Assembly: GCA_937891595.1 (NCBI GenBank)
Contig: CALATF010000052.1
Location: 17,921 to 81,920 of the forward strand
Direction: 5' to 3'
DNA: 64,000 nt
Origin: an uncultured Clostridia bacterium
Lineage (GTDB): Bacteria; Bacillota; Clostridia; Christensenellales; UBA1242
In this document: positions 12,303-59,174 of the stretch, in pieces
Layout: each line of letters begins with the position of its first letter
How positions within the stretch are numbered: position 1 is the stretch's first letter
Made by a program: the position numbers and the translations under genes
Notes under the pieces: model-generated
Told to the model about the DNA's origin: nothing
The model's input: the letters and a program-made list of their open reading frames with translations, nothing else
Databases searched by the model: none

Positions 12303-12440
12303 TTAAGCAGATAAAACTTTTCTGCCACGATTTCTACGTCTTTTTAAAACTTTTCTACCATTTCTTGTAGCCATTCTTTTTCTAAAGCCATGAACTTTAA
12401 CTCTTCTTTTTTTGTTTGGTTGGTAAGTTCCCTTTTCCAT
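12303..12440 (-). CDS. rpmH: 50S ribosomal protein L34
   Basis: Too short for the ORF track. My translation is [45 protein letters not shown] (45 aa), with SD AGGAGG 7 nt upstream of the ATG at 12440. Confidence 0.95.
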
Positions 12441-12560
12441 AAAAAACCTCCTGTAAAATTTTATATAAGAAATTAAATTTTTTCTTTGTGCAAGTTTGTC
12501 CGTGGTAAAAGATTAATCGGTCGCTTTAAAACTGGTCTTCAATATTAAACTCGCTTGGCT

Positions 12561-12589
12561 AGTTTAGAATATTTTAACTTACTTGTCAA
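12561..12589 (-). promoter_or_regulatory. Putative sigma-A promoter of rpmH-rnpA (TTGACA-17-TAAACT)
   Basis: TTGACA is the reverse complement of 12584-12589 and TAAACT of 12561-12566. This implies a ~115-nt leader. Confidence 0.4.
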
Positions 12590-12710
12590 CAAAAAAATTC
12601 TTGAAAAATTTATATACTTTGCACTAAAATTTTTTTGCTAATTAAAATATATTATTTTATTAATAATATAGTTTAAAAACAAAACCGACCAACTTGTATT
12701 AAACAAAATT

Positions 12711-12741
12711 GCTACATTCCTTTGTTTTAGCGGAATGTAGC
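12711..12741 (-). terminator. Hairpin downstream of the 12888-13712 ORF
   Basis: GCTACATTCC (12711-12720) pairs with GGAATGTAGC (12732-12741) around an 11-nt loop. On the minus strand it is followed by AATTTTGTTT. Confidence 0.5.
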
Positions 12742-12887
12742 AAGAAATCTTTTATATTACTAAAAACAAAAAACAGTTAGTCGATTTTTCGTTTTAATAT
12801 TTTAACTTTTAAATTTATTTAAAATTTTATATTTCTTTAAATTTTATTTTTAACAAATCTAAAATCGTAAGCAATTTTATTTTGATT

Positions 12888-13712
12888 TTAGTTTTCAACC
12901 ATATCAGAAGTAGCTTCGTTAAAATTTTGTTCACCGACTACACCGTCGAGATTTTCGGCAAAACTTTTGTCTAAATTAAATCTTAATTTGTCTACTATAA
13001 AACTTGCGCTTGCCCCCCAAATATCATTACTAAAACTCCCAAAATTCAAACTTCTCATTGTTTGTTCATTAGGAAAATAGTTGAAATTAACTGAAACATA
13101 GTTAGGGTCAGAAGAATATGAGTAAACTTCATTATCGCACATCTCTTTTGAAGAATGAATATTACATATCCCCTGAGCAACTGCTTGTTGTATCTCATCA
13201 AAAGAAAATTGCTTTAATTCAATATTTGTTCCCTTTTGTGGTTCTTTATAAAATTTTGTAGGAATACTAAAAAATTCATGAACATCAACCAAAGGCATTA
13301 AAGTTAAAAACAATTCTTCTACTGTCTTTTTTTCTGGTAAGTTATTGTCAGCACTGTTTACTAAAACTATAACATCATTTTGATAAGTATAGTATTTTAA
13401 AAGGTCATATGTTGATACATAATCTTTCCAATTTTCACCTTGTTGTTTTATTTCAAAGTATCTACCAACACCTTCTTTCCCAGCTGTCTTTTGTATAAAT
13501 TGAGTTTCTAAAAAATTATTGATTATTTTTGGTCTTTCGCCAGTAAGAAAACCTCTTAATTCTTTATTAATAAAAAATTCATCTCTTTTTTCGTTAGGAT
13601 TACTAAAACCATATCTAGATGCAACATCGTTATTGTACATACTATCAATTTTGTTGTCGTTATCATCTGTTAGAGCTCTAAAAATTCCTCTAAGTAGTTC
13701 TTCTGTGTACAT
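12888..13712 (-). CDS. Hypothetical protein (no family recognised)
   Basis: A clean 274-aa ORF with no TM segment or signal peptide. The opposite-strand ORF 13519-13728 is a low-complexity shadow. Confidence 0.6.
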   Translation of the reverse strand: MYTEELLRGIFRALTDDNDNKIDSMYNNDVASRYGFSNPNEKRDEFFINKELRGFLTGERPKIINNFLETQFIQKTAGKEGVGRYFEIKQQGENWKDYVSTYDLLKYYTYQNDVIVLVNSADNNLPEKKTVEELFLTLMPLVDVHEFFSIPTKFYKEPQKGTNIELKQFSFDEIQQAVAQGICNIHSSKEMCDNEVYSYSSDPNYVSVNFNYFPNEQTMRSLNFGSFSNDIWGASASFIVDKLRFNLDKSFAENLDGVVGEQNFNEATSDMVEN

Positions 13713-13800
13713 ATATTTTTCCTTTTAATTCAACTAAAATAGTGTATCATAGCTTTTTAAAAATATATATAGTCAGTTTGCACATATTTTTATTTTTTTA

Positions 13801-13832
13801 TTATCCACAAACACTTAACTAAATGTGGATAA
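13801..13832. promoter_or_regulatory. Convergent pair of perfect DnaA boxes (TTATCCACA-N14-TGTGGATAA)
   Basis: TTATCCACA at 13801-13809 and TGTGGATAA at 13824-13832. Confidence 0.8.
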
Positions 13833-13860
13833 TATCCTTTGTTTTAGCGACATATAACTA

Positions 13861-14132
13861 TTTTTTAATAAATAAATATTTAAAAATAAAAAATATAATT
13901 TTTTTAAATTCTATTATTAAATTTTTTATATTAAATTATAAATTAATTAATAATATAATATAATAAAAAAATAAAATTTTTTAATTTTTTTTCATAAAAA
14001 TAATACTTTATTATAATTTAATAAATAATATAGTTGTTTATAATTTTTTTCGTAATTTTTTAACGTAAAAAGAAAAAAATTTTTATAATATATTAATTAA
14101 TAAAATAATTTTATGTTTTAAAAAAAATAATA
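13861..14132. other. Extreme A+T tract (candidate DNA-unwinding region)
   Basis: I count 11 G/C in 272 nt (~96% A+T). It lies directly beside the DnaA-box pair and downstream of dnaN. Confidence 0.4.
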
Positions 14133-14171
14133 AAAAAAACAACCCGATTAGGTTGCTTTTTTATTTAAATT

Positions 14172-15278
14172 TTATTGATTTATAATTCTAACAGGTAAAA
14201 TTAAGTATAAATATTCGTCTCCATCATTTGGTGTTATTACACATGGGCTTGAAGGCATATTAAAACTAATTTTTATTGCTTCGTCAGAAATTGTTCTTAA
14301 ACATTCAGTAAAATATCTGCTATTAAAAGCAATTGTTAAATCATTACCTTTAAGTGAAATACCTATGTTTTCTTTTATATTGCCTATGTCTGAGTTAGAA
14401 GTAAGTGTTAAAACTTTTTCTTTAATATCAAATTTAACTAAATTGTTTCTATCTACCCTAGAAAGCACTGAAGTTCTTTCAATAGCTTCTTCAAAAACAT
14501 TTTTACTAATTGTAAGATTTGTTGAAAAATCTTTTGGAATAATTTGTTTGTAATTAATAAAATCGCCATCAATAAGTCTTGTAATAATTTTTGTGTTATC
14601 AAATTCAACCATTAAGAAGTTCTTTTGAATATAAACATTAATTTCTTCATCGTTATCTTCTAAGAACTTGCAAATTTCAGTTAAACTTTTAGCTGGAACA
14701 ATAATGCTTGTATTAACTGTTGTTTTAACTAATGGTTTTTTAACAAATGCAAGTCTATAACCATCAAGACCAACAGAATTAATACAATCTTGGTTAATTT
14801 CAAAACAACAACCTTTTAAAACTGGTCTAGTATCATCAATAGCAGTTGAGAAAATTGATTTGTTAATAAGAGTTTTAAAATCTTTTTGTTTAATTGTAAA
14901 GAAATCACCATCTTCAATAATATTTAAATTAGGAAACTCTACAACATTAAAACATTGAACATAACTTTCACTATCTGTGTAATTAATTTTTAATCTGTTT
15001 TTATCAGATAATTCAAGTTCTATTTTTTCTCCAGTAAGTTTTTTAATAAATTCCGAAAAGAATTTACCAGGAATAACTGTTTCGCCTTCTAATTTTACAT
15101 CTGCTTTAATTGTTTTTTCAATAGCTAACTCTAAGTCTGTTGCTGATAACTTTAATCTATCATTTTCTGCACTAAGTTTAATACCTTCTAAAACCGGATT
15201 TGTAGTTTTGTTAGATATTGCTTTTATTACTTGAGCAGTTGCAATACTTAAGTCAAGCCCGTCACATACAACCTTCAT
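14172..15278 (-). CDS. dnaN: DNA polymerase III beta sliding clamp
   Basis: 368 aa with full-length DnaN-like sequence (MKVVCDGLDLSIATAQVIKAISNKTTNPVLEGI..), adjacent to dnaA. Confidence 0.95.
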   Translation of the reverse strand: MKVVCDGLDLSIATAQVIKAISNKTTNPVLEGIKLSAENDRLKLSATDLELAIEKTIKADVKLEGETVIPGKFFSEFIKKLTGEKIELELSDKNRLKINYTDSESYVQCFNVVEFPNLNIIEDGDFFTIKQKDFKTLINKSIFSTAIDDTRPVLKGCCFEINQDCINSVGLDGYRLAFVKKPLVKTTVNTSIIVPAKSLTEICKFLEDNDEEINVYIQKNFLMVEFDNTKIITRLIDGDFINYKQIIPKDFSTNLTISKNVFEEAIERTSVLSRVDRNNLVKFDIKEKVLTLTSNSDIGNIKENIGISLKGNDLTIAFNSRYFTECLRTISDEAIKISFNMPSSPCVITPNDGDEYLYLILPVRIINQ

Positions 15279-15328: not shown

Positions 15329-15558
15329 TGTGAATAACCTTTTTTTTAACAAAATGTTGTGTTTTTATTTTAGCACAAATTTCAAAAAACTCAATATGTT
15401 GTTGTGGATAATTTTTTTTAGCAATAATTAAAATTGTTGATAACTTTATCTTTGTTCGACCAAGTGTTCTAAAACACTTTCGCGCGTATTAAATTATTAA
15501 TTTATTAATAATATTAATTATAAAACGTTATTAATAAGCATTGTGAATTTGTGTATAA
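15329..15558. promoter_or_regulatory. DnaA-box cluster in the dnaA-dnaN spacer (oriC part)
   Basis: TGTGGATAA at 15403-15411 is perfect. One-mismatch boxes are TGTGAATAA 15329-15337, TGTTGATAA 15435-15443 and TGTGTATAA 15550-15558. All share the same orientation. Confidence 0.7.
15481..15525. other. GC cluster (CGCGCG) followed by 39 nt of pure A/T: candidate DUE
   Basis: CGCGCG at 15481-15486, then an uninterrupted A/T run at 15487-15525, lying between DnaA boxes. Confidence 0.4.
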
Positions 15559-15668
15559 CTTTTTATACAACCCATATATTGTGGTTTTTTTAAAAAAAAT
15601 TAAAAAAAATCAATAAATATTGATAAATTTTATCAACAAAAAAAGTGGAAAAATATGTATATTTGTTT

Positions 15669-17358: not shown

Positions 17359-18465
17359 ATGTATATAGAAAGTGTAAAACTAGAAAATTTTAGAAATTAT
17401 AATACGTGTGAAGTAAAATTAAAGCCAAATCTAAATGTTTTTAAGGGTAACAATGCTCAAGGTAAGACAAATTTTTTAGAAAGCATATATTTTTCAAGCA
17501 TAGGTAAATCTCCTAAAACAAATAAAGAAAAAGACTTAATTTTATGGGGCGAAGATAGTGCAAAAATAACAATTAACCTAAAAAAACAATATTTTAGTCA
17601 AAAAATAGAGGTTTTTTTAAACAAAAGCACTAATAAAACAATAAAAATAAATAGTTTGAATATTAGAAAAATAGGTGACTTAATAGGAGAAATGCCAGTT
17701 GTTTATTTTTCTCCCGAGGAAATAGGTTTAATAAAAGATGGTCCTGCAGATAGAAGAAGATTTATGGATATTGATATTAGTCAATTAAATAAAAACTATT
17801 TTTACTTGCTTTGCAGGTATGAAAAAGTTTTGGCAGAACGAAATAAATTATTAAAGCAAACAAGAAAAATTGAAAATCTTTATGAAACCATTGAACTTTG
17901 GGATTCTCAACTTGCAGATATAGCTAGTAAAATTATATTTTTTAGGTTGGATTTTATAGAAAAAATTAAAGAACCCGCAAAAAAAGTTCATTCCAATATA
18001 ACTTCTAATCAAGAAGTGCTTGAAGTAAAATATCAGGGTATTCAATTAAAAAATGTTGAAGAAATTAAAGGAAAGTTATTAAAAGCTTATAAATCTAGTT
18101 TGCAAAAAGATTTTGAGTTTGGTTATACAACGGTAGGCCCACATAGAGATGATATAGAAATTACAATCAACAACATTGATATTCGAAATTTTGGTTCACA
18201 AGGTCAACAAAGGCTCGCAACTCTTTCTCTCAAAGTTGCCGAACTTGTTTTATTTGAAAAACAAACAGGTGAAAAACCTATTTTACTTCTTGATGATGTT
18301 TTAAGTGAATTAGATGCAAAAAGACAAAAAAATTTATTAAATGAAATAAAAAATTATCAAACTATAATAACAACTACAAAATTTGGTAAAATTTCAGATG
18401 AAAATAGTACAATTTTTATGGTAAAAAATGCTGTTATTGAAGAAAAACAAAATATAAAAAATTAA
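17359..18465 (+). CDS. recF: DNA replication/repair protein RecF
   Basis: Walker A GNNAQGKTNFLESIY, signature GSQGQQRLATLSLK and Walker B LLLDDVLSELD. Confidence 0.95.
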   Translation: MYIESVKLENFRNYNTCEVKLKPNLNVFKGNNAQGKTNFLESIYFSSIGKSPKTNKEKDLILWGEDSAKITINLKKQYFSQKIEVFLNKSTNKTIKINSLNIRKIGDLIGEMPVVYFSPEEIGLIKDGPADRRRFMDIDISQLNKNYFYLLCRYEKVLAERNKLLKQTRKIENLYETIELWDSQLADIASKIIFFRLDFIEKIKEPAKKVHSNITSNQEVLEVKYQGIQLKNVEEIKGKLLKAYKSSLQKDFEFGYTTVGPHRDDIEITINNIDIRNFGSQGQQRLATLSLKVAELVLFEKQTGEKPILLLDDVLSELDAKRQKNLLNEIKNYQTIITTTKFGKISDENSTIFMVKNAVIEEKQNIKN

Positions 18466-48238: not shown

Positions 48239-48712
48239 TTAAATCTTTTTATAATTAAATATAATAGGCGAACAACTTGCGACCCCTAAAAATGGGGTGC
48301 TTTCACTAGGAACAATTCCAAACGATTTACAAATAAAAGCACCTAAATTAACTCCGCTGGTTACGCAAATAATAGTGTCTTCGTCGTTATATTTTTCAAT
48401 AATATCGTCAATACAATTAATAATTCTTGTTTGTGCCTGCGTCCAAGTTTCATTTTTAAAACTTTTAAATTCGTTAAGTCTATTATCTTTTATGATGGGA
48501 ACATTATGAAATTGATTAATTATTTCAGCTGTTTTTGTACATCTAAAAAAGCTTGAAGTAAAAATAGCCTTTAAACTATTTTTTATGCTTTCGTGTTTAA
48601 ATAGTTCACTTACAAGTTGGCAATCTTTATAACCAAGCTCTGTTAAATCGTCTTTTTGTGAAGGGGGATTTTCTATTTTTCTATTACCATGATGAACATA
48701 AATTATTTTCAT
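48239..48712 (-). CDS. Histidine-phosphatase-like protein (divergent)
   Basis: 157 aa. The N-terminal IYVHHGNR sits where RHG is expected; overall resemblance is weak. Confidence 0.45.
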   Translation of the reverse strand: MKIIYVHHGNRKIENPPSQKDDLTELGYKDCQLVSELFKHESIKNSLKAIFTSSFFRCTKTAEIINQFHNVPIIKDNRLNEFKSFKNETWTQAQTRIINCIDDIIEKYNDEDTIICVTSGVNLGAFICKSFGIVPSESTPFLGVASCSPIIFNYKKI

Positions 48713-48905: not shown

Positions 48906-50048
48906 TTAACTTGGTAAAAATTCAGATTGTTCTTCTATTTGAGTTTTGTTAGAAACAGTTTGTTTTATGCCGTTTTCTAAAACATTTTCTACTTCTTCAG
49001 AAGTTTCACTTTTATCGAAAGTTGCAGTAGAATTAGTTTCCTCGTTAAATCCAAAACCATCTTCAAAATTATCACATTCTGTTTTATCTTCTTGAGCAAA
49101 AACTTCTTTTAATTTATCAGTTTCTAAAAATATTGAATTTTCCTTTATAACGGCAGGCATTAAAGAACCATTTGTTCTAATAGGTGCGGGCATTAAATCT
49201 TTAAAGTGTGGGTAAATTTTTCCGTTAATTGCTTTTACACCAAAAATATTTTCAACTTCACTTAATTTATTTGGATGAATTTGGTTGTTATAAACATTAG
49301 GGTAATTATAAGAATAATTAGCTTGTAAAATGCCCCCTTTGTTCATAAAAGGCATTAAAGATTTAACATCTTGTCTAAATGCATTATGGTCAGAATAATA
49401 ATCTAAAACATTTGATAGCAGTGCTACATCAAAAGTTTTGTCTTTTGGTAAAGCTGAAGAAAGGTTTTGTAAGCTTGCTTGAATAAAAGTTACTTTAGGG
49501 TTAGATTGTAATATCTCCCTTAATTGCATGTATTCTTCTTTGTTTTGTAAAAATGAGGGATATCTTACGCTAAACCTATCAAAAAGCCCTTCAATAATTT
49601 CTCGATGTGAAAAATCTTTACTAACTTCAGTCCAAAAGGCAACGCTCTCCTCTGGCATAATAGGAGCCAATTTTGAAACAATTTTACTAAAATTTTTTAA
49701 TGCGTTAATAGGACGAAAAGTAAAAAGATTTTTAGTTTCTTTCATAGATAATGTTTGTATTGCGGCAGATTTTAGCTGAAAGAAATGATAAACAAAAGGG
49801 TTTATATCAAATAATGTTACATCACTTGCCCCGTTTAAAAGAGAGTATAAAGTTTGGTCACAACTACTACCAACAGTTATTACGCTTTTGCCTTGTAGTT
49901 CTAAATATTTATAAAAGTCTCCTTCATTAGAATGCAAGTAAGGTCTTTCAAATTTTTTTATTAAACCAACGTCGTGATATCTATTTATACTTTCAATTAT
50001 TTCTCTTGCACGAGAAATTTGATTATCTAATTTTGTTTTTTCTTCCAT
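48906..50048 (-). CDS. DUF3419/BtaA-like SAM-dependent transferase-fold protein
   Basis: VITVGSSCDQTLYSLLNGASDVTLFDINPFVYHFFQLKSAA resembles the DUF3419 N-terminal SAM-binding pattern. This is from memory and unverified. Confidence 0.5.
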   Translation of the reverse strand: MEEKTKLDNQISRAREIIESINRYHDVGLIKKFERPYLHSNEGDFYKYLELQGKSVITVGSSCDQTLYSLLNGASDVTLFDINPFVYHFFQLKSAAIQTLSMKETKNLFTFRPINALKNFSKIVSKLAPIMPEESVAFWTEVSKDFSHREIIEGLFDRFSVRYPSFLQNKEEYMQLREILQSNPKVTFIQASLQNLSSALPKDKTFDVALLSNVLDYYSDHNAFRQDVKSLMPFMNKGGILQANYSYNYPNVYNNQIHPNKLSEVENIFGVKAINGKIYPHFKDLMPAPIRTNGSLMPAVIKENSIFLETDKLKEVFAQEDKTECDNFEDGFGFNEETNSTATFDKSETSEEVENVLENGIKQTVSNKTQIEEQSEFLPS

Positions 50049-50992: not shown

Positions 50993-51122
50993 GTATAAAC
51001 TCATTATTTATAACTAAGTGAAATTTTTAGACAAAGCAATTTTAAAAATTAATTTAAATTTTGGTTTATTTCATTATCTTTTTTTAATTTTTATATGTAT
51101 AATTACTGAAAAGGATGGCGAA

Positions 51123-52763
51123 ATGGGAATAGAACAAAATATAAGCATATATTGTAAATTAAGAAATCAACAATTTAACAATTATTGTGTACAAAATGGA
51201 TTTCAGGCTGATGCAAAAACAAAGCAATCTTTTTTTGAAATGGAAAGAGAAAAGGTTGATGGGAAACCAAACCCAGTATTTGTAGAAACAATGAAATACG
51301 TTTCTGCATTTACACAGCCAATTCCAAACAAAGTTAATTTGTATTGTATTATTAGAGGACAAGGTTATAAAAGTTATTTATCACAAAATGGATTTCAAGA
51401 TACTCCAGAATCTAAAAATAGTTTTTTCAGTTATGATTTATTGAAACAGGGAGTTCCAAATCCTGAGTTTATAAAATCTATGTCATATGTAGACCTTATG
51501 TCAGATACAAGTGTTCGCAAATGTGCAGAAACCTTTGCGTCTATAAAAAGCAAAGAGTATGAAGAATTTTTATCAGCCAATAAAATGACCGATGGATTAT
51601 ATACTAAAGCAATGTTTTTTACACAAAATAGAGATGCAGCTCTACAACCAAATTCCGATTTTAAACAAGTAATGGAGGCTGTTGTTGTTCTTAGAGAAAA
51701 TTTAACAATAGCTAATAGATATGTACAAGAAAGGCAAGAGGAATATGTTTCTTTTGTTAGGGGAAATGGGCTAGAAAACAACCCAGAATCTGTTGCAAGA
51801 TTTTTTGTAAAGGAAAGAGAAAAAATAGATGGTAAGCCAAACCCAGTCTTCAAAGAAGTAATGGCAAAAATTTCTCAAGAGATGGAAGATCAAAGCTCTT
51901 TTTCTACGCCTAATGCAAATCAACCTTTTACACAAAAAACAGAAAACACACTAACAAATTCAACTCCAGTTACGACAGTACATGAAACCGCTACCAAACC
52001 AGAGCCAGTGGTAGAAGGTTTAAAAGAAAACACAACAAATCAAACTGTAGTGACTAATGCTGTTGTTAAAGATGAAGTTGCTACTCATGGACAACAAAAT
52101 AATAGTCAATTTGTAAATAGCGGGCAAAAAGAGAATACAATAACACCAAGACAAGATTTTAAAAATATGCCCATAGATAAACTTTTAGCATATGTGAGAT
52201 TTGGTATTAATGATAATGGTCCGCATAAAGTACCATATTTATCTGGTGGGATGGGTAGTATTACAGAAGAAGTTATTCCTGCAGCAATGGAGTATTTGTC
52301 AAGAAATCCAAATTTAGCAAGCATAGAATTAAGAGATTTAAATGGAATAAATCTAAATATTACACAAGAAAGTACTTTAGAAGGTTTAGTATCTGAATGG
52401 ACAACAACTATGGATGCTAAAATGGCAGAAGCTCAAGCAAGAAGAGAACAATCTCAAGCAAAAACGGAAGAAACTCAGGTAATACCACAAGAACCGCAGG
52501 TAATAAGTAATAAAACTGAAGAAATATCGCAAGGAACTTCAGTGCTAACCGAAATTGAACCAGTTAATATTCCTATTGAAACAAGAGAAAGATTTGGTGA
52601 GAAATATGATTTAGATGCAATTGCATCTGGACCTAATGCAAATGAAGTATTAAATGATTTGCCTGCTTTTGATAATTTAGCACATGGGCAAGCGATGGTT
52701 GAAGATCAAACCAAATTTATTGATCCAACACTAACACAAACAATTTCAACTACAAATAATTAA
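51123..52763 (+). CDS. Hypothetical protein with four ~60-aa tandem repeats, a T/N/Q-rich linker and an unknown C-terminal domain
   Basis: The repeat signature Y..R...Y..(F/Y)...NG(F/L)......FF..ER(E)K.DGKPNP.F..(V/T)M recurs four times. ATG at 51123 with SD AAAGGA. Confidence 0.6.
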   Translation: MGIEQNISIYCKLRNQQFNNYCVQNGFQADAKTKQSFFEMEREKVDGKPNPVFVETMKYVSAFTQPIPNKVNLYCIIRGQGYKSYLSQNGFQDTPESKNSFFSYDLLKQGVPNPEFIKSMSYVDLMSDTSVRKCAETFASIKSKEYEEFLSANKMTDGLYTKAMFFTQNRDAALQPNSDFKQVMEAVVVLRENLTIANRYVQERQEEYVSFVRGNGLENNPESVARFFVKEREKIDGKPNPVFKEVMAKISQEMEDQSSFSTPNANQPFTQKTENTLTNSTPVTTVHETATKPEPVVEGLKENTTNQTVVTNAVVKDEVATHGQQNNSQFVNSGQKENTITPRQDFKNMPIDKLLAYVRFGINDNGPHKVPYLSGGMGSITEEVIPAAMEYLSRNPNLASIELRDLNGINLNITQESTLEGLVSEWTTTMDAKMAEAQARREQSQAKTEETQVIPQEPQVISNKTEEISQGTSVLTEIEPVNIPIETRERFGEKYDLDAIASGPNANEVLNDLPAFDNLAHGQAMVEDQTKFIDPTLTQTISTTNN

Positions 52764-52843: not shown

Positions 52844-53500
52844 TTATTTCTTAATTAAAAAATCTTTCCAAGAATCGTTTAAATATTTAGTATAATTCTT
52901 TATAGTTATTTCGTTAGGTTTAATTTTTTTTAAATCTGCCCAATTAATAGGGAAGTATATGGTAGCACAATCTCTACATCTTACAGAAAATGGAGCAACG
53001 CAAGTAGACCCTCGATTGTTGCGCAGATAGTCAACAAATATTTTATTTTTTCGTTCTTCCTTTTTTATGTTTGTAGTGAAAGTTTTTGGCCACTTTTTTC
53101 AAGCAATAATGCAACTTGCTTAGATACTTCGTAAAATTCGTTCCAGTCTTTCTTTTTATTTAAAGGAACAACAATGTGATATCCCTTGCCACCACTTGTT
53201 TTTAAAAAGGATTTTAAATTAAGTTCTTCAAGAAGTTGTTTTGTTTTTAATACACCATTACGCAATTTATTTAAAGGCAAATTTTCATCAGGATCAAGAT
53301 CAAAAACCATACATCTGGTTGTTCTAATTTGCGTATTGAACTGCCCCAAACATGAAATTCAATGGTGCCCATTTGCACTTGATATATAAGTTGAGACTGA
53401 GTAGTAATATAAAAATATTCTTCTTTACCATCAAAAAATCCGAACTCCAATAGATTGTTAAAGGTGCTAGGGTTTTTTTGCAGAGTAGAGGGCTATTGAC
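52844..53500 (-). pseudogene. Decayed LigD-type primase-polymerase (NHEJ PolDom / AEP) gene
   Basis: Three reading frames hold consecutive pieces: ..GTIEFHVWGS / VFDLDP..KTSGGKGYHIVVPL.. / ..KIFVDYLRNNRGSTCVAPFSVR... Frameshifts sit at C4 (53344-53347) and T6 (53094-53099), a TAG lies upstream, and the N-terminal ~90 aa are absent. Confidence 0.75.
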
Positions 53501-53511
53501 TCGAACTGAAC

Positions 53512-53583
53512 ATTATTTATGTATTATTATTCAATAAAAATCCACCCGAACCATAATAGTACGGATAGACAAGTTGCTGGCGG
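53512..53583. repeat. tRNA-Ser 3' end plus downstream hairpin (partner of 50487-50553)
   Basis: Aligned by eye to 50487-50553. Shared blocks are AAAAATCCA, TAATAGTA, GGAT.GACAA and TGGCGG. Confidence 0.6.
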
Positions 53584-53665
53584 AGAGGACAAGATTCGAA
53601 CTTGCGGTGGGTTGCCCCACACGCGCTTTCCAAGCGCGCACTTTAGACCACTCGGACACCTCTCC
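53578..53665 (-). tRNA. tRNA-Ser (anticodon GGA)
   Basis: The reverse complement is GGAGAGGTGTCCGAGTGGTCTAAAGTGCGCGCTTGGAAAGCGCGTGTGGGGCAACCCACCGCAAGTTCGAATCTTGTCCTCTCCGCCA, with a long variable arm, discriminator G and an encoded CCA. Confidence 0.92.
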
Positions 53666-53736: not shown

Positions 53737-53776
53737 TTATCCACTTATCCACAAAATATCAATAAATTGTGGATAA
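53737..53776. promoter_or_regulatory. DnaA-box trio: TTATCCACT + TTATCCACA - N14 - TGTGGATAA
   Basis: 53737-53745 has one mismatch, while 53745-53753 and 53768-53776 are perfect. It lies ~70-110 bp upstream of tRNA-Ser. Confidence 0.75.
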
Positions 53777-53863
53777 CTATACTAATTCTTTACCTTTTCA
53801 AAGTAAACTATAGTATTATAGATAATAATTGTACTTTTTGCAATAAAATTTTAATAATAAATT

Positions 53864-54793
53864 TTAATTAATAGACATTAGAAAATCTTCAAAAGCTTCT
53901 TGTTTTTCAGCTGAGGTTTGATTAGATAAAGGTTCTTGATGTGAATTTTCACCACCAAAAAGAATTTCTGTTTCAGATATTTGATATTCTGGAGATATTA
54001 ATTTTTCACAGTTTAACTTATATGCTGTGTAACTTGAGTTAAGAAGTAATTTAGAAACTTGGGTTGGTGTAGCGTCAACATTAAAAGCAAAATTGTCATA
54101 AAATTTAATATTATTATCATACTCAGGTAAAATTTGCTGCCAACTTCTATAAACACCTGTTTGTTTTGCAATATGTTCTAATTCGCAGTTACAAAGTTGT
54201 AAAAAGTAAGGTTTATTAGCTTGTGCTGAATTTTTAACAATATCTTCAAAAGCTCCGCAAGAACGTTGAGCTATAACAAAGTCGTATGGTGTTACATCTG
54301 TTTGTTCATTAAACATGCCGTCAATACCTTTGACATTAAAGTTAGATAAGCAGTCGTTAGAAACAGAAAATTTGTCTATGCTGGAAACATCTTTCATGTG
54401 TCTTGCTATTGAAATTGAAGAATAAGGAACACTACCAGCACCTACTTCAAGCAAAGCTGTGTTTTCTTTGTTAGGTGCAAGTGACATTGCTGTAATAGTG
54501 TAAGCGTCATGTTTTAATGCACATCCAGCTTTAAAAAAGCTATTAAGACTTAAAATAAAATCAGGAACTGCTTTGAAAAAAGAATTACAATCTTCTTCAT
54601 TAGCAAAATTAAAGCAGTCGTGATTACATGTAATAAAATTTAAAAATTCATCAGGAGCTTTTGTAAAATCTTCCGGTGTTTTAATAGCAAAGGTAGAAAA
54701 AGCCTTAAAAATATGATTAAGGTTGAAGTTGTTTTCATTGTATTCTTTAGAATTAATAATTTTTCTTAAAGCAATGCTATCTTTTACTTTCAT
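53864..54793 (-). CDS. Paralog 1 of an uncharacterised two-domain protein (C-terminal Rossmann-like, UPF0146-like)
   Basis: 309 aa. It shares LLEVGAGSVPYSSI, FNVKG, YDFVIAQRSC, NKPYFLQLCNCEL and ILPEYDNNIKFYDNFAFNVD with the next two genes. Confidence 0.65.
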   Translation of the reverse strand: MKVKDSIALRKIINSKEYNENNFNLNHIFKAFSTFAIKTPEDFTKAPDEFLNFITCNHDCFNFANEEDCNSFFKAVPDFILSLNSFFKAGCALKHDAYTITAMSLAPNKENTALLEVGAGSVPYSSISIARHMKDVSSIDKFSVSNDCLSNFNVKGIDGMFNEQTDVTPYDFVIAQRSCGAFEDIVKNSAQANKPYFLQLCNCELEHIAKQTGVYRSWQQILPEYDNNIKFYDNFAFNVDATPTQVSKLLLNSSYTAYKLNCEKLISPEYQISETEILFGGENSHQEPLSNQTSAEKQEAFEDFLMSIN

Positions 54794-54854
54794 TTTTCTT
54801 TTCCTATTGTAATTTTATATCCAAATTTTATTTTGGTCAATATGGCAAATAGAA

Positions 54855-54886
54855 CAAAAAAACAACTTTATTATTTTAAAGTTGTT
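54855..54886 (-). terminator. Terminator between paralogs 2 and 1
   Basis: AACAACTTTA (54861-54870) pairs with TAAAGTTGTT (54877-54886), followed by T6 on the minus strand. Confidence 0.7.
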
Positions 54887-54894
54887 TAATTATA

Positions 54895-55800
54895 TTAAAA
54901 TAATTCGCAAGGTTCTAAACCTAACACTTCTTCAAAGAATTCATGGTTTTCAAATATTGTTTTTAGTAAAAACTCTGTTTGACCATTATCTATAATAGTT
55001 TCTGGAGCACGATGTTCTTCTAAAAGCATACCAACTTGTTCAGGTGTTGCGTCAAGATTAAAAGCAAATTTATGGTAAAATTTAATATCACTATCATATT
55101 CAGGCAAAATTTCATCCCAGCTTCTAAATTTACCTTCTCTTGTAGCAATTTTTCCTAATTCACAACTGCAAAGCTCAATAAAATAAGGTTTGTTAGAGCT
55201 TGAAGCGTTTTTAACTATGCTTTCAATAGCAGTGCAAGGACGTTTTCCAACAATAAAATCATAATTTTCAACATCAGTATTGTCGCTAAAATATTCGTTT
55301 TTGCCTTTAACATTAAATCTGGCAAGGCATTGATTAGATAAATCTAATTTATCCATAGAAGTAACATCATTAAAGTATTTTGCTAAAATAATAGAGCTAA
55401 AAGGCACACCGCCTGCTCCAACATCAAGTAATTTAGTGCTTTCTTTGTTTGGGGCTAAGTCGCTAACAACTTTAGTAAAATAACTAGGTTTAGATTTTTC
55501 AGTATCTTGAACTCTTACATGTAAATCTGCTAAAAATTCAGAGCAGTCGCTAACAAATTCCTCGGAATCTCTTTCGCTTGTAAAATTAATGCAATCAAAA
55601 CTTGAACGAATAGCTTCTAAAAATCCATCAGCTGATTGTTTTATATCTTTTCCATTAAATATTGAAAGGGTAGAGTATATTTTAAACATCTTAGGAATGT
55701 TAAAGCCTTCTTTACTATAATAATTATTTTTTAAAAAATTTCTAAATGTAAAAATATCTTTCATATAAGAAATTCTATCATTAGAACAATAACATTTCAA
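54895..55800 (-). CDS. Paralog 2 of the same family
   Basis: 301 aa. The ORF-track start is TTG; the ATG 12 codons in (MKDIFTFRN) aligns with the start of paralog 1. Confidence 0.65.
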   Translation of the reverse strand: MKCYCSNDRISYMKDIFTFRNFLKNNYYSKEGFNIPKMFKIYSTLSIFNGKDIKQSADGFLEAIRSSFDCINFTSERDSEEFVSDCSEFLADLHVRVQDTEKSKPSYFTKVVSDLAPNKESTKLLDVGAGGVPFSSIILAKYFNDVTSMDKLDLSNQCLARFNVKGKNEYFSDNTDVENYDFIVGKRPCTAIESIVKNASSSNKPYFIELCSCELGKIATREGKFRSWDEILPEYDSDIKFYHKFAFNLDATPEQVGMLLEEHRAPETIIDNGQTEFLLKTIFENHEFFEEVLGLEPCELF

Positions 55801-55875
55801 CTGGTAAAATTGTACAAAAAAAACTAATCAATTTACTAAATTTGTAGATTTTTAAACTATTTTATATAAACATGT

Positions 55876-55900
55876 AAAAAACAACCATAAGTGGTTGTTT
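55876..55900 (-). terminator. Terminator between paralogs 3 and 2
   Basis: ACAACCA TAAG TGGTTGT, followed by a T-run on the minus strand. Confidence 0.65.
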
Positions 55901-55983
55901 TAAAAACCTTGTTCAAACATATCATCAACCATATTATCAATATTTTCTAAATAGTTTTTTTCTTTTAAAATTTGTTAGATTTA

Positions 55984-56799
55984 CTAAAAAAAATCTGGTT
56001 CTAATATTTCAAAAGACTCAATCAAATGTCCTACTAATGAAGGTCTAGTGTCTAAGTTAAATGCAAAGTTTTTGTAAAACTTAATGTCTTTATCATATTC
56101 AGGTAAAATGTCTTCCCATCCTCTATAAATGCCTTCACGTTGTGCTATTTCCGTTAGTTCGCAATTGCATAGTTCAAGAAAATAAGGCTTGTTTGCGCTA
56201 GAAGCATTTTTTACTACGCTCTCAATAGCAGTGCATGGACGTTGACCAACAATAAAGTCATAACCTTCAACGTTTGTATCGTCATCAAAATATTCGCTTC
56301 TACCTGTTACGTTAAAGTTTTCTAAGCAAGGGTTAGATAAAACTAATTTATCCATGGCTGTAACGTTTTTAAATTCTTTGGCTAAAATAATTGAGCTGTG
56401 TGGAATGTCTCCAGAACCAACGTCAAGTATTTTAGTTCTTTCTTTACTAGGGGAAAAAGCTGTAACAAGGTCTGTGTAATATGTGCGAGGCATGCTTGTT
56501 GAAGCTTCAACTTTTTCTCTTAACAAATACATAAATTCTGATAAATCAAAATTAAAAGAGGCTAAATCTTCGGCATTTTGAAAATTTATACAATCGGTAC
56601 ATCTAAGTATAGTGTCTAAAAAATCGCCGGGTGCATTTTTTAAGTCTTCCATATTAGCAATATTGTTAGTAGAATAAGCTTTAAACATTTCTGGAAGATT
56701 AAATCCTTCTTTGCTATAAGCTTTTTCTCTTAATAATTTTCTAAACTCAAATATTTCTTTCATATGCAAAATTTTATCATTATTAAAAACATATTTCAA
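55984..56799 (-). CDS. Paralog 3 of the same family
   Basis: 271 aa, with ILDVGSGDIPHSSI, YDFIVGQRPCTAIESVVKNASSANKPYFLELCNCEL and ILPEYDKDIKFYKNFAFNLD. Confidence 0.65.
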   Translation of the reverse strand: MKYVFNNDKILHMKEIFEFRKLLREKAYSKEGFNLPEMFKAYSTNNIANMEDLKNAPGDFLDTILRCTDCINFQNAEDLASFNFDLSEFMYLLREKVEASTSMPRTYYTDLVTAFSPSKERTKILDVGSGDIPHSSIILAKEFKNVTAMDKLVLSNPCLENFNVTGRSEYFDDDTNVEGYDFIVGQRPCTAIESVVKNASSANKPYFLELCNCELTEIAQREGIYRGWEDILPEYDKDIKFYKNFAFNLDTRPSLVGHLIESFEILEPDFF

Positions 56800-56834
56800 C
56801 TGGTTAATATATACAAAAATATGATGAAATTTAA

Positions 56835-56870
56835 TAAAAAAAGGCTAAGTAAATTTAGTTAGCCTTTTTA
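56835..56870 (-). terminator. Terminator after the 56917-57438 gene
   Basis: AAGGCTAA (56841-56848) pairs with TTAGCCTT (56859-56866), followed by a T-run on the minus strand. Confidence 0.7.
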
Positions 56871-56916: not shown

Positions 56917-57438
56917 CTAAATATTAAATTTAATTACAGCACCATTACTGCATTGAAGCCATTTTATTTGATTATCTTTAGGAATGCCGTTTATAAAAGC
57001 ATTTATTCCATATAATGTAGAACTATGTGCACAAATTAAAACGGTAGAGTTGTTTTTTGCGCTAGAAACTATTTTGTTTAAACCTATTATGCATCTATCT
57101 ATAAAATCTTTACATGTTTCAAACTTTTCATTGTCGTAATTATAATTTAGATAGTTGTTATCATATTCTTCTTTATATAAAAATTCTTCAGCAGTAGTTA
57201 AAGCTTGTCTTTCATTAAGTTCTTTAATAATAAATAAAGGAACGTTAATTTTTGCGTTAATAATGTTAGCGGATTGCAAGGTTCTAGTTCTTGGCGAGCA
57301 ATATATTGCATCTATTTTTTCGTTAGATAAATATTTTAATGCCCCTTTAATTTGCATAGAGCCCCTTAATGTTAATTTTCCAGTATTATAATTACATTCG
57401 CCATGTCTTATAAAAATAAGTTTAATGTTTTTTTTCAT
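56917..57438 (-). CDS. Histidine phosphatase family protein
   Basis: 173 aa with IRHGECNYN and a later CAHSSTL. Confidence 0.8.
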   Translation of the reverse strand: MKKNIKLIFIRHGECNYNTGKLTLRGSMQIKGALKYLSNEKIDAIYCSPRTRTLQSANIINAKINVPLFIIKELNERQALTTAEEFLYKEEYDNNYLNYNYDNEKFETCKDFIDRCIIGLNKIVSSAKNNSTVLICAHSSTLYGINAFINGIPKDNQIKWLQCSNGAVIKFNI

Positions 57439-57450
57439 GTTGTTTTCTCC

Positions 57451-58371
57451 TTATACTTTTAAAGAAGCTTCTATTGCTTTAGTGAAAATATTTTTTGTTG
57501 TATTATAATTTTCTTTTGAATAGTTCGCATACCCATTCATAGAAACAATAGAGTTAATTTCTAAAACTTTAATTTGTTCATTTTCTATAAATAGGTCAAC
57601 AGAACAGAAATTCATTTTAATAACTTTTAATACTTTTTCAGCAAAATTTATAAGGTCATTTTTTAATTTTTCATCTGTTATGTTTTGGGGGATTGAATTC
57701 ATTTTTAAATTATGTTTCCAACCTATTGTAATTTTCTCCTCTTTTTTAGGCGTTATAAATCTTTTAAAAAAAGGTAATGTAAAATTCAATTCAGAATATT
57801 TGTTTTTAACTATTTTATTTAAAGATGTTTTGCCGTCGCCCACAACAAAAGGTCTAACCTTTTTATAACATGCTTCACACTTTCCGTCTAGCATAATTAG
57901 TCTATATTCATTTTCATAATTTACATAAGGACTTACAGCTATATCCAAACCTTGTTTTAATATTTTTGTTACAGCTCTTTTTAATTGAAAGATAGTTTTT
58001 ACTAAATATACATTATTCCCGCATGAACCAAAATTATCCTTAACAACCAAGCCATTAGAGTTATTAACAAGGAGTTGTTTTAATGTGTTAAATTTCCAAG
58101 GAATATTATATTTTGGGTGTTTAAATAAAACGTGATTTATATGTGGAATGTTATTTAAGGTTAATACATCACTAAGAGCACTTTTGTCAGAACAGATTTT
58201 TTGAGAAGAAGCATTGTTTAGAGGGAACCTATTGCCATAAATATAAAAAGCTTTTTTAGTATTTTTATCTTTAATTTCTATAATGTAATTGTCAGAAAGT
58301 CCTGTAATTTCAAAATTCTTTTGAATAGCAATTTCGCTTAGTAGTTTAAATAAATAATCGTTATATTTCAT
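57451..58371 (-). CDS. ATP-grasp-fold ligase (specificity unknown)
   Basis: The pattern ..SSQKICSDKSALSDVLTLNNIPHINH.., LVVKDNFGSCGNNVY, NEYRLIML and VLEINS is typical of ATP-grasp enzymes. ATG at 58371 is preferred over the ORF-track start 58497, which overlaps the upstream gene. Confidence 0.6.
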   Translation of the reverse strand: MKYNDYLFKLLSEIAIQKNFEITGLSDNYIIEIKDKNTKKAFYIYGNRFPLNNASSQKICSDKSALSDVLTLNNIPHINHVLFKHPKYNIPWKFNTLKQLLVNNSNGLVVKDNFGSCGNNVYLVKTIFQLKRAVTKILKQGLDIAVSPYVNYENEYRLIMLDGKCEACYKKVRPFVVGDGKTSLNKIVKNKYSELNFTLPFFKRFITPKKEEKITIGWKHNLKMNSIPQNITDEKLKNDLINFAEKVLKVIKMNFCSVDLFIENEQIKVLEINSIVSMNGYANYSKENYNTTKNIFTKAIEASLKV

Positions 58372-58436: not shown

Positions 58437-59174
58437 TTAAATTAAAAATATGAATACACAAACAAATGCCAAACTTAAATAATAAATTGAATAGCAAGGT
58501 ATAAAAAATTTATTTGTTTTTTCATTTTCTGCAAAATTTATAAAAGTTTGAAGTATGTTTGAAACTAAATTTAAAATGAAAGTGAGAGCTAAAATATAAA
58601 TAGGTAAATTTGCAACAACTATAGCTAAATATACTGCAAAAATAGTTGTAAAATTAATTACAAAATAATTTAAAATAGTTTGAAATTTGAAAATTCTTAA
58701 ATCAAATTTTAAAGCCTTTGTGAAAACAAAGTAAATAACAAATGTAAGTATTAAAGAACAAGCTAAAATAATTATTAAAGGCAATAAATATTGCTTAGAA
58801 AAAACATCAATGATGTTGTTTGCAATTAAAATAATTCCACAAGCATTAAAAATATGGCTAATAATTAATAAAATAGAGCTTGTTAGGTTGTATTTTTTTT
58901 CATGAAAAGGGTATATAGTTTTAAGTTCAATATACATGTCGCCTATAAAATTACAAACTAATGAAACAATCAAACAAGTAATTGTATAATTTGCAAAGTT
59001 ATCAACCCCTACTTTACCACTGCTAAGTAACAAACAAACAACAATGAAACTAAGGGATGCAAAGGTTTTAAGTAAAAAAGAATTAATTCCACCTTTAGAA
59101 ACTTTTGAATGCAAAAATAAACTTGTAGTTAATAAGCATAAACACAAACCTATAATTAGAATATATAAATTCAT
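58437..59174 (-). CDS. Polytopic membrane protein (YhhN-like impression only)
   Basis: 245 aa with ~8 TM segments. Confidence 0.5.
   Translation of the reverse strand: MNLYILIIGLCLCLLTTSLFLHSKVSKGGINSFLLKTFASLSFIVVCLLLSSGKVGVDNFANYTITCLIVSLVCNFIGDMYIELKTIYPFHEKKYNLTSSILLIISHIFNACGIILIANNIIDVFSKQYLLPLIIILACSLILTFVIYFVFTKALKFDLRIFKFQTILNYFVINFTTIFAVYLAIVVANLPIYILALTFILNLVSNILQTFINFAENEKTNKFFIPCYSIYYLSLAFVCVFIFLI

Follow-up and report, generated by a model that had tools for sequence, protein, structure and literature searches.

In class I S-adenosylmethionine (SAM)-dependent methyltransferases, a glycine-rich loop after strand beta1 and an acidic end of beta2 make up the classical SAM-binding motifs I and II, and the adjacent loops after beta4 and beta5 cover the transferable methyl group of SAM and hold the acceptor. 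Here we describe three consecutive genes, labelled P1, P2 and P3, on the minus strand of a 64,000-nucleotide stretch of DNA from an uncultured Clostridia bacterium (contig CALATF010000052.1, positions 17,921 to 81,920 of the forward strand; hereafter the window). The predicted products share with class I methyltransferases the fold, the G-x-G loop after beta1 and the acidic end of beta2. Nevertheless, they differ from the class I models, as they score below all Pfam thresholds, their loop reads G-x-G-x-x-P-x-S-S, and they carry a family-specific helical N-terminal domain (N-domain), an acidic tail and an invariant set of Cys, Cys and (Cys or His). By sequence comparison and predicted structure, they belong to a family without a name that forms a divergent branch of the class I SAM-methyltransferase-fold superfamily.

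All three open reading frames (ORFs) were found exactly where the original prediction, made from the sequence alone, had placed them (53864-54793, 54895-55800 and 55984-56799, for products of 309, 301 and 271 aa, respectively). As judged from the alignments, P1, P2 and P3 are genuine paralogs, as had been proposed: over the full length, P1 shares 45% identity with the others, P2 and P3 share ~58%, the mean column identity is 64%, and at least 90 columns are invariant. The sequence blocks listed as common to the three are present, except that RPCTAIE is replaced by RSCGAFE in the 309-aa copy and TDV by TNV in the 271-aa copy. The C-terminal tails differ, as predicted, in both the paralog and the family alignments. 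The starts of P2 and P3 were corrected. Their true starts are likely ATG 55764 and ATG 56763, respectively, as (i) MK[DE]I opens every homologue and (ii) the public gene calls point to the same codons. Initiation of either gene at an upstream TTG was rejected on the first of these grounds, and also because this TTG begins at the first base of a -35 hexamer and because the extension falls out of frame in a related locus (L009, described below). With the ATG starts, P2 (54895-55764) encodes 289 aa and equals the public protein P0005, and P3 (55984-56763) encodes 259 aa and is identical to the public protein P0001. P1 (53864-54793) starts with ATG, encodes 309 aa and is preceded by a Shine-Dalgarno sequence, AGGAA, at 54801-54805. 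The spacers at the array become 153, 219 and 101 nt, in place of the ~100-180 nt given before.

No Pfam or NCBIfam model matches P1, P2 or P3. The sub-threshold Pfam matches of the trio are limited to the nucleotide-loop region of nicotianamine synthase (NAS), Methyltransf_23 and HMD_N, and the scores against methyltransferase Pfam models are at most 12.5 bits. A word-indexed search recovered 11 clusters of relatives, and an exhaustive profile search with a hidden Markov model recovered 421 representatives (clustered at 50%), 114 of them at E<=1e-30. Most relatives are 250-330 aa long, no domain fusion was found among the best 150, and public sources name none of the family proteins. Five further loci were detected by a genome-collection scan (31-36% identity), all in metagenome-assembled genomes of Clostridia or Lachnospiraceae, and four of the five came from ruminant gut samples (sheep, goat and water deer). 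For family-wide conservation and Pfam scans, we used 137 aligned members. Their weak Pfam matches all belong to the SAM-methyltransferase clan (NAS in 20 members, Methyltransf_23 in 13, UPF0146 in seven and TehB in six), and one distant member, P0154, passes the Methyltransf_23 threshold (32.7 vs 27 bits). A profile search of PDB sequences retrieved only beta1-beta3 of assorted methyltransferases, at E>=0.003. Kinship to Methyltransf_32/METTL25/RRNAD1, an idea that arose from a weak match of P0154 and an 'LHaCG' motif, was set aside, as weak matches were seen in only three of the 137 members and these proteins are uncharacterised in the literature.

The two-domain layout that had been proposed was borne out by an AlphaFold2 model of full-length P2, built from a 12-sequence alignment (predicted local distance difference test (pLDDT) 86, predicted template modelling score (pTM) 0.79). 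The model comprises a helical N-domain (residues 1-103), a seven-stranded Rossmann/methyltransferase alpha/beta domain (residues 111-235) and a tail of low confidence. A separate model of the catalytic domain reached a pLDDT of 95.4 and a pTM of 0.90, and carries seven strands including a terminal beta6/beta7 antiparallel hairpin, as in class I methyltransferases. Foldseek returned a probability of 1.0 to more than 100 class I methyltransferases, and the 163 and 109 matches at E<=1e-3 (full-length and domain searches, respectively) were all class I SAM methyltransferases and their relatives. In the full-length search, CntL (7c9m) ranked top and plant O-methyltransferases, likewise equipped with helical N-domains, came next, with template modelling (TM) scores of 0.28-0.37. 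The domain search, with TM scores of 0.45-0.58, retrieved various small-molecule C-, N- and O-methyltransferases alongside METTL5, TehB-like proteins and rRNA methyltransferases. A viral structure library gave the same fold picture, and no UPF0146, ArsM or RsmB-type structure was among the top 50 fold matches.

The original prediction had likened the C-terminal half to a UPF0146-type Rossmann fold; a Rossmann fold of the SAM-binding type is indeed predicted, but the link to UPF0146 was not supported. Like the present family, UPF0146 (PF03686) combines a V-G-x-G loop with a small domain of Rossmann type. Nevertheless, its profile of 129 positions describes a single domain of ~130 aa, whereas the array proteins are 259-309 aa long and have an extra helical domain of ~100 aa and a tail. 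Membership was rejected because none of the trio matched UPF0146 even at E<=1 (gathering score 26 bits). The weak matches in seven of the 137 members reach E=2.9e-4 at best and are confined to beta1-beta2 (for instance, P0148 scores 14.1 bits over profile positions 12-53). A literature search on UPF0146 found nothing.

Conservation in the family is highest in the two loops that hold the acceptor in class I methyltransferases. Only two residues, C177 and C199 (numbering of the 289-aa P2), are invariant across the 137 members, and L113, V115, G116, G118, S124, D138, P176, A179, C201 and L220 are at least 90% conserved. G116 is found in 129 members, G118 in 131 and D138 in 130, with Glu at the last position in six more. 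When mapped on the model, the loop L-D/E-V-G-x-G-x-x-P-x-S-S follows beta1, D138 closes beta2, P-C177-x-A directly follows beta4, and C199-x-C/H201 directly follows beta5. C201 is missing from seven members, six of which have a His within four residues, and the seventh has a doubled Cys after beta4. Such replacements suggest a ligand set rather than a lone nucleophile. At position 187, where the helix after beta4 ends, 102 members have a fourth Cys; P1-P3 and their close relatives have Ala or Ser instead. The isoelectric points of the window paralogs are 4.6-4.9, with every domain acidic, and the family median is 5.3; this acidity argues against direct nucleic-acid substrates. The tails of the 137 members are likewise acidic, often with an aromatic residue close to the C-terminus. 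A clamp-binding-like or SSB-tail-like C-terminal motif (…QMELF, …CELF) was considered and dropped, as no motif is common to the 137 tails.

From the sequences and models, we favour, at about even confidence, the reading that P1-P3 are cytoplasmic SAM-dependent transferases, most likely methyltransferases, in which a thiolate triad (C177, C199 and C/H201) would bind or activate the acceptor and which differ from one another mainly in the N-domain and tail. The triad might ligate a soft metal or metalloid directly, like the three-Cys As(III) site of ArsM/AS3MT, or it might carry a metal by which a small-molecule or protein substrate is activated. The divergence of the N-domains and tails would then reflect different substrates or partners for each paralog. 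AS3MT/ArsM holds As(III) by three Cys thiolates beside SAM (PMC3877260). We aligned the family with human AS3MT (sequence from PDB entry 8xt7) by hhalign over 30 columns. Cys156 of AS3MT lies in the post-beta4 loop as C177 does, but two residues earlier, and its As-binding Cys206 (PMC3877260) lies ~25 residues past beta5, whereas C199 and C201 stand directly past this strand. By this comparison, the likeness to ArsM/AS3MT is a mechanistic analogy only and not membership. No ars operon was found at the array.

Several points weigh against the favoured reading. ArsM/AS3MT was not detectable as a sequence relative in the profile search of PDB sequences, the Cys-to-His swaps stem from only two or three subclades, and that C177, C199 and C201 cluster in space is taken from the general class I topology. 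Canonical motif I has a third glycine, which is missing from the G-x-G-x-x-P loop, so that SAM binding is predicted rather than evident from the motif. The Foldseek statistics are modest (E ~6e-5, TM <=0.58) and no methyltransferase subfamily stands out. Members have no linked genes for metal transport, thiol metabolism or ars-type functions, and their neighbourhoods are unrelated across genomes.

CntL heads the full-length fold matches (over 277 columns, with MtNAS (3fpj) also listed), and an alternative is that the family is NAS/CntL-like. In this case, SAM would be an aminobutyrate (3-amino-3-carboxypropyl) donor for building a small metal-binding metabolite, and the paralogs would take different substrates. 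NAS/CntL proteins (PF03059; PDB 3FPE, 7C9M) have a similar loop, G-x-G-x-x-P-x-(S/T)-(S/G), the same layout of a helical N-domain followed by a Rossmann domain, and a similar total length. NAS is also the commonest weak Pfam match in the family, seen in 20 of the 137 members (best E 9.1e-4) and in P2 (16 bits) and P3 (14.2 bits) themselves, and MtNAS aligns in register over beta1-beta4 with 28% identity in 58 columns. Nevertheless, every NAS match falls below the Pfam threshold (16 vs 27.1 bits, the gathering score), the full-length TM score is only 0.35, the hhalign E-value for MtNAS is 0.035, and the profile search of PDB sequences listed neither NAS nor CntL even at E<=10. The MtNAS alignment stops ahead of the cysteine motifs, and NAS and CntL are not known to have a cysteine triad. 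As for genomic context, no opine-dehydrogenase, racemase or metallophore-transporter genes, as expected of a cnt-type operon, occur near the array. We therefore regard a NAS/CntL-like activity as unlikely.

The positions of the invariant cysteines bear on another possibility, namely that the family comprises pyrimidine-C5 (m5C/m5U) RNA or DNA methyltransferases acting by covalent catalysis, with the cysteines corresponding to those of RsmB/NSUN motifs IV and VI. The two catalytic Cys of RNA m5C methyltransferases stand at the post-beta4 and post-beta5 positions, and the invariant Cys directly after beta4 (P-C-S-A) and beta5 would agree with them, although by positional equivalence only. An rRNA uracil-C5 methyltransferase (8z62) is among the domain fold matches (rank 29, root-mean-square deviation 3.1 A, 107 columns). 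It is, however, the only such protein in the top-50 fold lists, and the profile search of PDB sequences contained no RsmB/NSUN/TrmA-type chain at E<=10. The strong acidity of every domain is atypical for nucleic-acid enzymes, an RNA-binding domain is not present, and the replacement of the third Cys by His fits a ligand better than a nucleophile. Covalent pyrimidine methylation thus appears decidedly improbable.

The same exchange between Cys and His, together with the invariance of the cysteines, would also suit a structural Zn or Fe-S site or a redox-active disulfide in proteins that use the methyltransferase scaffold without catalysis. These could be SAM or redox sensors, or adaptors acting through the N-domain and acidic tail. 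The loci come from ruminant-gut Clostridia genomes, presumably those of anaerobes, and acidic disordered tails, often aromatic near the end, could bind partners. Two points speak for an enzyme: the conservation of G116, G118, S124 and D138 is about as strong as that of the cysteines, which argues that cofactor binding has been retained, and the topology suggests that the cysteines lie in the acceptor loops rather than in a peripheral structural site. We consider a non-catalytic or redox role quite unlikely, and retain the SAM-dependent transferase with a thiolate-triad acceptor site as the favoured reading.

The history of the array was traced by comparison with related loci. In a sister genome (loci L007 and L008), the same three copies likewise follow a His_Phos_1 gene, and two copies occupy this place in a more distant relative (L009 and L010). 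A 1.9-kb contig carries two further copies, P0002 and P0006. Distant genomes have a single copy, save one (L004) with an independent and deeply diverged pair. In a neighbour-joining tree, all array copies formed one clade (100% bootstrap); within this clade, P2, P3 and the first copies elsewhere made up an A-type group with 100% support, and P1 and the P1-like last copies (B-type) were basal. This topology suggests that the A/B duplication is older than the split of the genomes and that P2 and P3 arose by a later duplication of the A-type gene. By these comparisons, the array is a lineage-specific tandem triplet of functional paralogs.

The three copies have diverged at very different rates. 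The genes flanking the array are 95-99% identical to those of L007 at the protein level, with nonsynonymous divergence (dN) of 0.007-0.024, synonymous divergence (dS) of 0.04-0.57 and dN/dS of 0.02-0.08 (0.22 for one short flanking gene). P3 resembles the flanks (95% identity to its L007 ortholog, dN 0.025, dS 0.17, dN/dS 0.15). P2 and P1 share only 76% and about 79-80% identity with their L007 orthologs (dN 0.144, dS 0.75 and dN/dS 0.19 for P2; dN 0.119, dS 1.34 and dN/dS 0.09 for P1), and their dN values are 5-10 times those of the flanking genes and P3. Since dN/dS lies between 0.09 and 0.19, all three copies are functional and under purifying selection. Gene-wide positive selection was rejected on account of these ratios and because the divergence of P1 and P2 from their orthologs is spread evenly along the gene. 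Between paralogs, identity is 58-71% in the catalytic domain, 29-42% in the N-domain and 37-42% in the tail, a pattern that fits conserved chemistry with diversified recognition.

These rates bear on the idea, put forward in the original prediction, that the array is diversifying and typical of specificity-determining or conflict-related families; we took it to mean a function in defence, toxicity or immunity that evolves under positive selection. The excess divergence of P1 and P2 over the flanks is in line with it, as are the variable copy number (three, two or one, plus the independent tandem pair in L004) and the position of the array next to a tRNA-Ser gene at which synteny breaks, L007 having an SMC_N/AAA_21/DUF3226 ATPase at this place. 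Nevertheless, the low gene-wide dN/dS is accompanied by a raised dS and by even divergence over the domains, the paralogs have no PADLOC or PHROGs match (their neighbours have only generic His_Phos and ATP-grasp matches to PHROGs), the array occupies a stable chromosomal setting near oriC, ~37-40 kb from dnaA and beside housekeeping genes, and members in most genomes are single and stand-alone with unrelated neighbours. A conflict-related array is therefore very improbable, and the locus provides no evidence of a new defence or conflict system. What survives of the idea is that the raised dN of P1 and P2 and the divergence of the N-domains and tails fit a diversified specificity.

The promoters of P2 and P3 are copies of each other. 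On the minus strand, the P3 block (56771-56819) consists of TTTTTGT (56813-56819), ACCAG, the -35 hexamer TTGAAA (56794-56799), a 17-nt spacer and TGaTAAAAT with the -10 hexamer at 56771-56776 (10/12 match in the promoter scan, with TG). The P2 block (55772-55820) is a duplicate of it, with TTGAAA at 55795-55800 and TGaTAGAAT with the -10 hexamer at 55772-55777. A sequence shared upstream of the two genes had been taken to make their start codons uncertain. The sharing was confirmed, but the uncertainty was not, as the common sequence CCAGTTGAAAT is the -35 hexamer TTGAAA of this extended -10 promoter. ACCAGTTGAA occurs exactly in the window only at the P2 and P3 promoters, and the block TTTTTGT..ACCAGTTGAA-N17-TGnTAnAAT is kept at P2 and P3, at their L007 orthologs and at the first copy of L009, so that the promoter must have been duplicated along with the gene.

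In both P2 and P3, the ATG lies 7 nt downstream of the -10 end, and no Shine-Dalgarno sequence was found by an anti-Shine-Dalgarno word scan. The mRNAs of P2 and P3 are thus probably leaderless. In the first copy of L009, a 14-nt insert with a Shine-Dalgarno-like AAGAGA separates the promoter block from the ATG. The same simple scan found no Shine-Dalgarno sequence for 15 of the 47 larger ORFs of the window. At least five other window genes of this kind have TGnTAnAAT 6-7 nt before the ATG, and an extended -10 element near the ATG was seen, for instance, at 17359 (+), 30405 (-), 50048 (-), 30503 (+) and 27411 (+). The shared geometry points to a habit of the genome rather than a peculiarity of the array, and suggests that leaderless mRNAs are common in the host organism. 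P1 has a promoter of its own at 54812-54840 on the minus strand (TTGACC, 17-nt spacer, TAAAAT), which is identical in L007 and resembles an element ahead of the second L009 copy; its Shine-Dalgarno sequence is also conserved in L007.

The three hairpins of the original prediction are real in that they fold better than shuffled sequence, although a simple terminator scan did not pick them up. All are on the minus strand and end in a U-run. The hairpin after P3 (about 55878-55901) has a folding energy of -10.2 kcal/mol (z -2.6) and that after P2 (about 54860-54887) one of -11.8 kcal/mol (z -4.7), both being conserved in L007. The third (56838-56869; -11.3 kcal/mol, z -3.95; identical in L007) terminates the upstream His_Phos_1 gene and isolates the array from it. 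The claim that each paralog has its own terminator therefore holds for P3 and P2, but not for P1, as the hairpin assigned to 56835-56870 belongs to His_Phos_1 and the 74 nt past the P1 stop contain no terminator-like hairpin (z +0.49). The first clear terminator past P1 lies beyond the tRNA-Ser gene. Because each gene has its own promoter, kept in the sister genomes, and P3 and P2 are followed by terminators, we infer with good support that P1, P2 and P3 are separate transcription units, in agreement with the prediction.

The window (G+C ~28%) includes the origin region of the chromosome, with dnaN and dnaA at 14.2-17.0 kb (minus strand) and, diverging from them, recF, gyrB and gyrA at 17.4-24.4 kb (plus strand); the GC skew switches sign at ~17 kb. 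Five DnaA boxes, perfect or with one mismatch, are located at 15329-15638 between dnaN and dnaA, which fits oriC. No obvious mobile element was found with the array. Upstream of the array are the His_Phos_1 gene (56917-57438, minus strand), which has the same position in L007 and L009, and genes for a RimK-like ATP-grasp protein, a 245-aa membrane protein without annotation and DAPDH. Downstream, a tRNA-Ser(GGA) gene (53578-53665, minus strand) serves as a conserved landmark, past which synteny is lost. Only the linkage to His_Phos_1 and tRNA-Ser is conserved, and only within this clade; the His_Phos_1 link is not present at distant loci. An all-against-all comparison of the ORFs at eight loci detected no conserved operon partner, and the immediate neighbours at distant loci have unrelated functions by Pfam annotation. 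A YhhN protein beside the homologue of L002 was considered as kin of the 245-aa membrane protein, and proved not to be homologous. In two distant genomes, homologous 415-469-aa proteins lie directly beside the family gene (L001 11005-12252 and L003 2782-4191, both on the minus strand), in differing relative orientation; they have a rubrerythrin-like match just under threshold (E=2.5e-4).

Some further observations concern the surroundings of the array. The RimK-like ATP-grasp gene (57451-58371) and the membrane protein gene (58437-59174), both on the minus strand, share only 82-83% protein identity with L007 (dS ~0.71, dN/dS ~0.14-0.15), whereas surrounding genes are 95-99% identical. Between the tRNA-Ser gene and the P1 stop, three DnaA boxes occupy 53737-53776, where TTATCCACA and TGTGGATAA are inverted and 14 nt apart. 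They lie downstream of a promoter (TTGCAA-17-TATAAT, 53815-53843), and L007 retains both the promoter and the three boxes, which are not conserved in L009. A second perfect inverted DnaA box pair with the same 14-nt spacing is found beside dnaN (13801-13832), and the element near P1 would fold into a strong hairpin as RNA.

Just past the tRNA-Ser gene, where synteny with L007 stops, 52870-53460 (minus strand) holds the decayed remains of a LigD primase-polymerase gene. A 94-aa ORF there matches PF21686, with the remainder of the domain continuing in the other two frames, which implies at least two frameshifts. Further on, 51018-52763 (plus strand) encodes an acidic 581-aa protein with a hydrophobic N-terminus and four repeats of ~63 aa (…NGFQ…SFF…DGKPNPxF…), which has no Pfam, PADLOC or PHROGs match and is missing from the syntenic position in L007. 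At this place, directly past tRNA-Ser, L007 carries the gene for its defence-like SMC_N/AAA_21/DUF3226 ATPase (639 aa; 12435-14354, minus strand), followed by AspRS and GatCAB. The difference in content between the two genomes suggests that tRNA-Ser marks a variable region. A second His_Phos_1 paralog (48239-48712) and a DUF3419/DUF7790 protein gene (48906-50048), both on the minus strand, are located ~5 kb from the array. In L007, a 157-aa gene and a DUF3419 gene are found beyond AspRS and GatCAB, which indicates local rearrangement.

The trio is a variant within a very well known superfamily, and its interest, which we regard as moderate, lies mainly in the active-site chemistry. It is attractive to speculate, though we hold this tentatively and think it rather unlikely, that the family represents an unrecognised class of SAM enzymes with a Cys-Cys-(Cys/His) acceptor site on a minimal methyltransferase scaffold, expanded into paralogs with distinct recognition domains in gut Clostridia. 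Such enzymes might methylate a metal, metalloid or thiol without kinship to ArsM, or might be SAM enzymes of Rossmann fold that are assisted by a metal cluster. If the favoured reading is true, gut anaerobes possess a family of methyltransferase-fold enzymes that is unnamed and, with 421 representatives, fairly large, and whose active-site signature, two invariant Cys and a Cys/His, matches no curated family. The locus is also a clean natural case of a gene duplication that took the promoter along, and its apparent leaderless expression and the very unequal rates of its copies make it useful for the study of paralog divergence. Knowing what the family acts on would then enlarge the range of SAM enzymes in the rumen and gut microbiome by a new chemistry or a new target.

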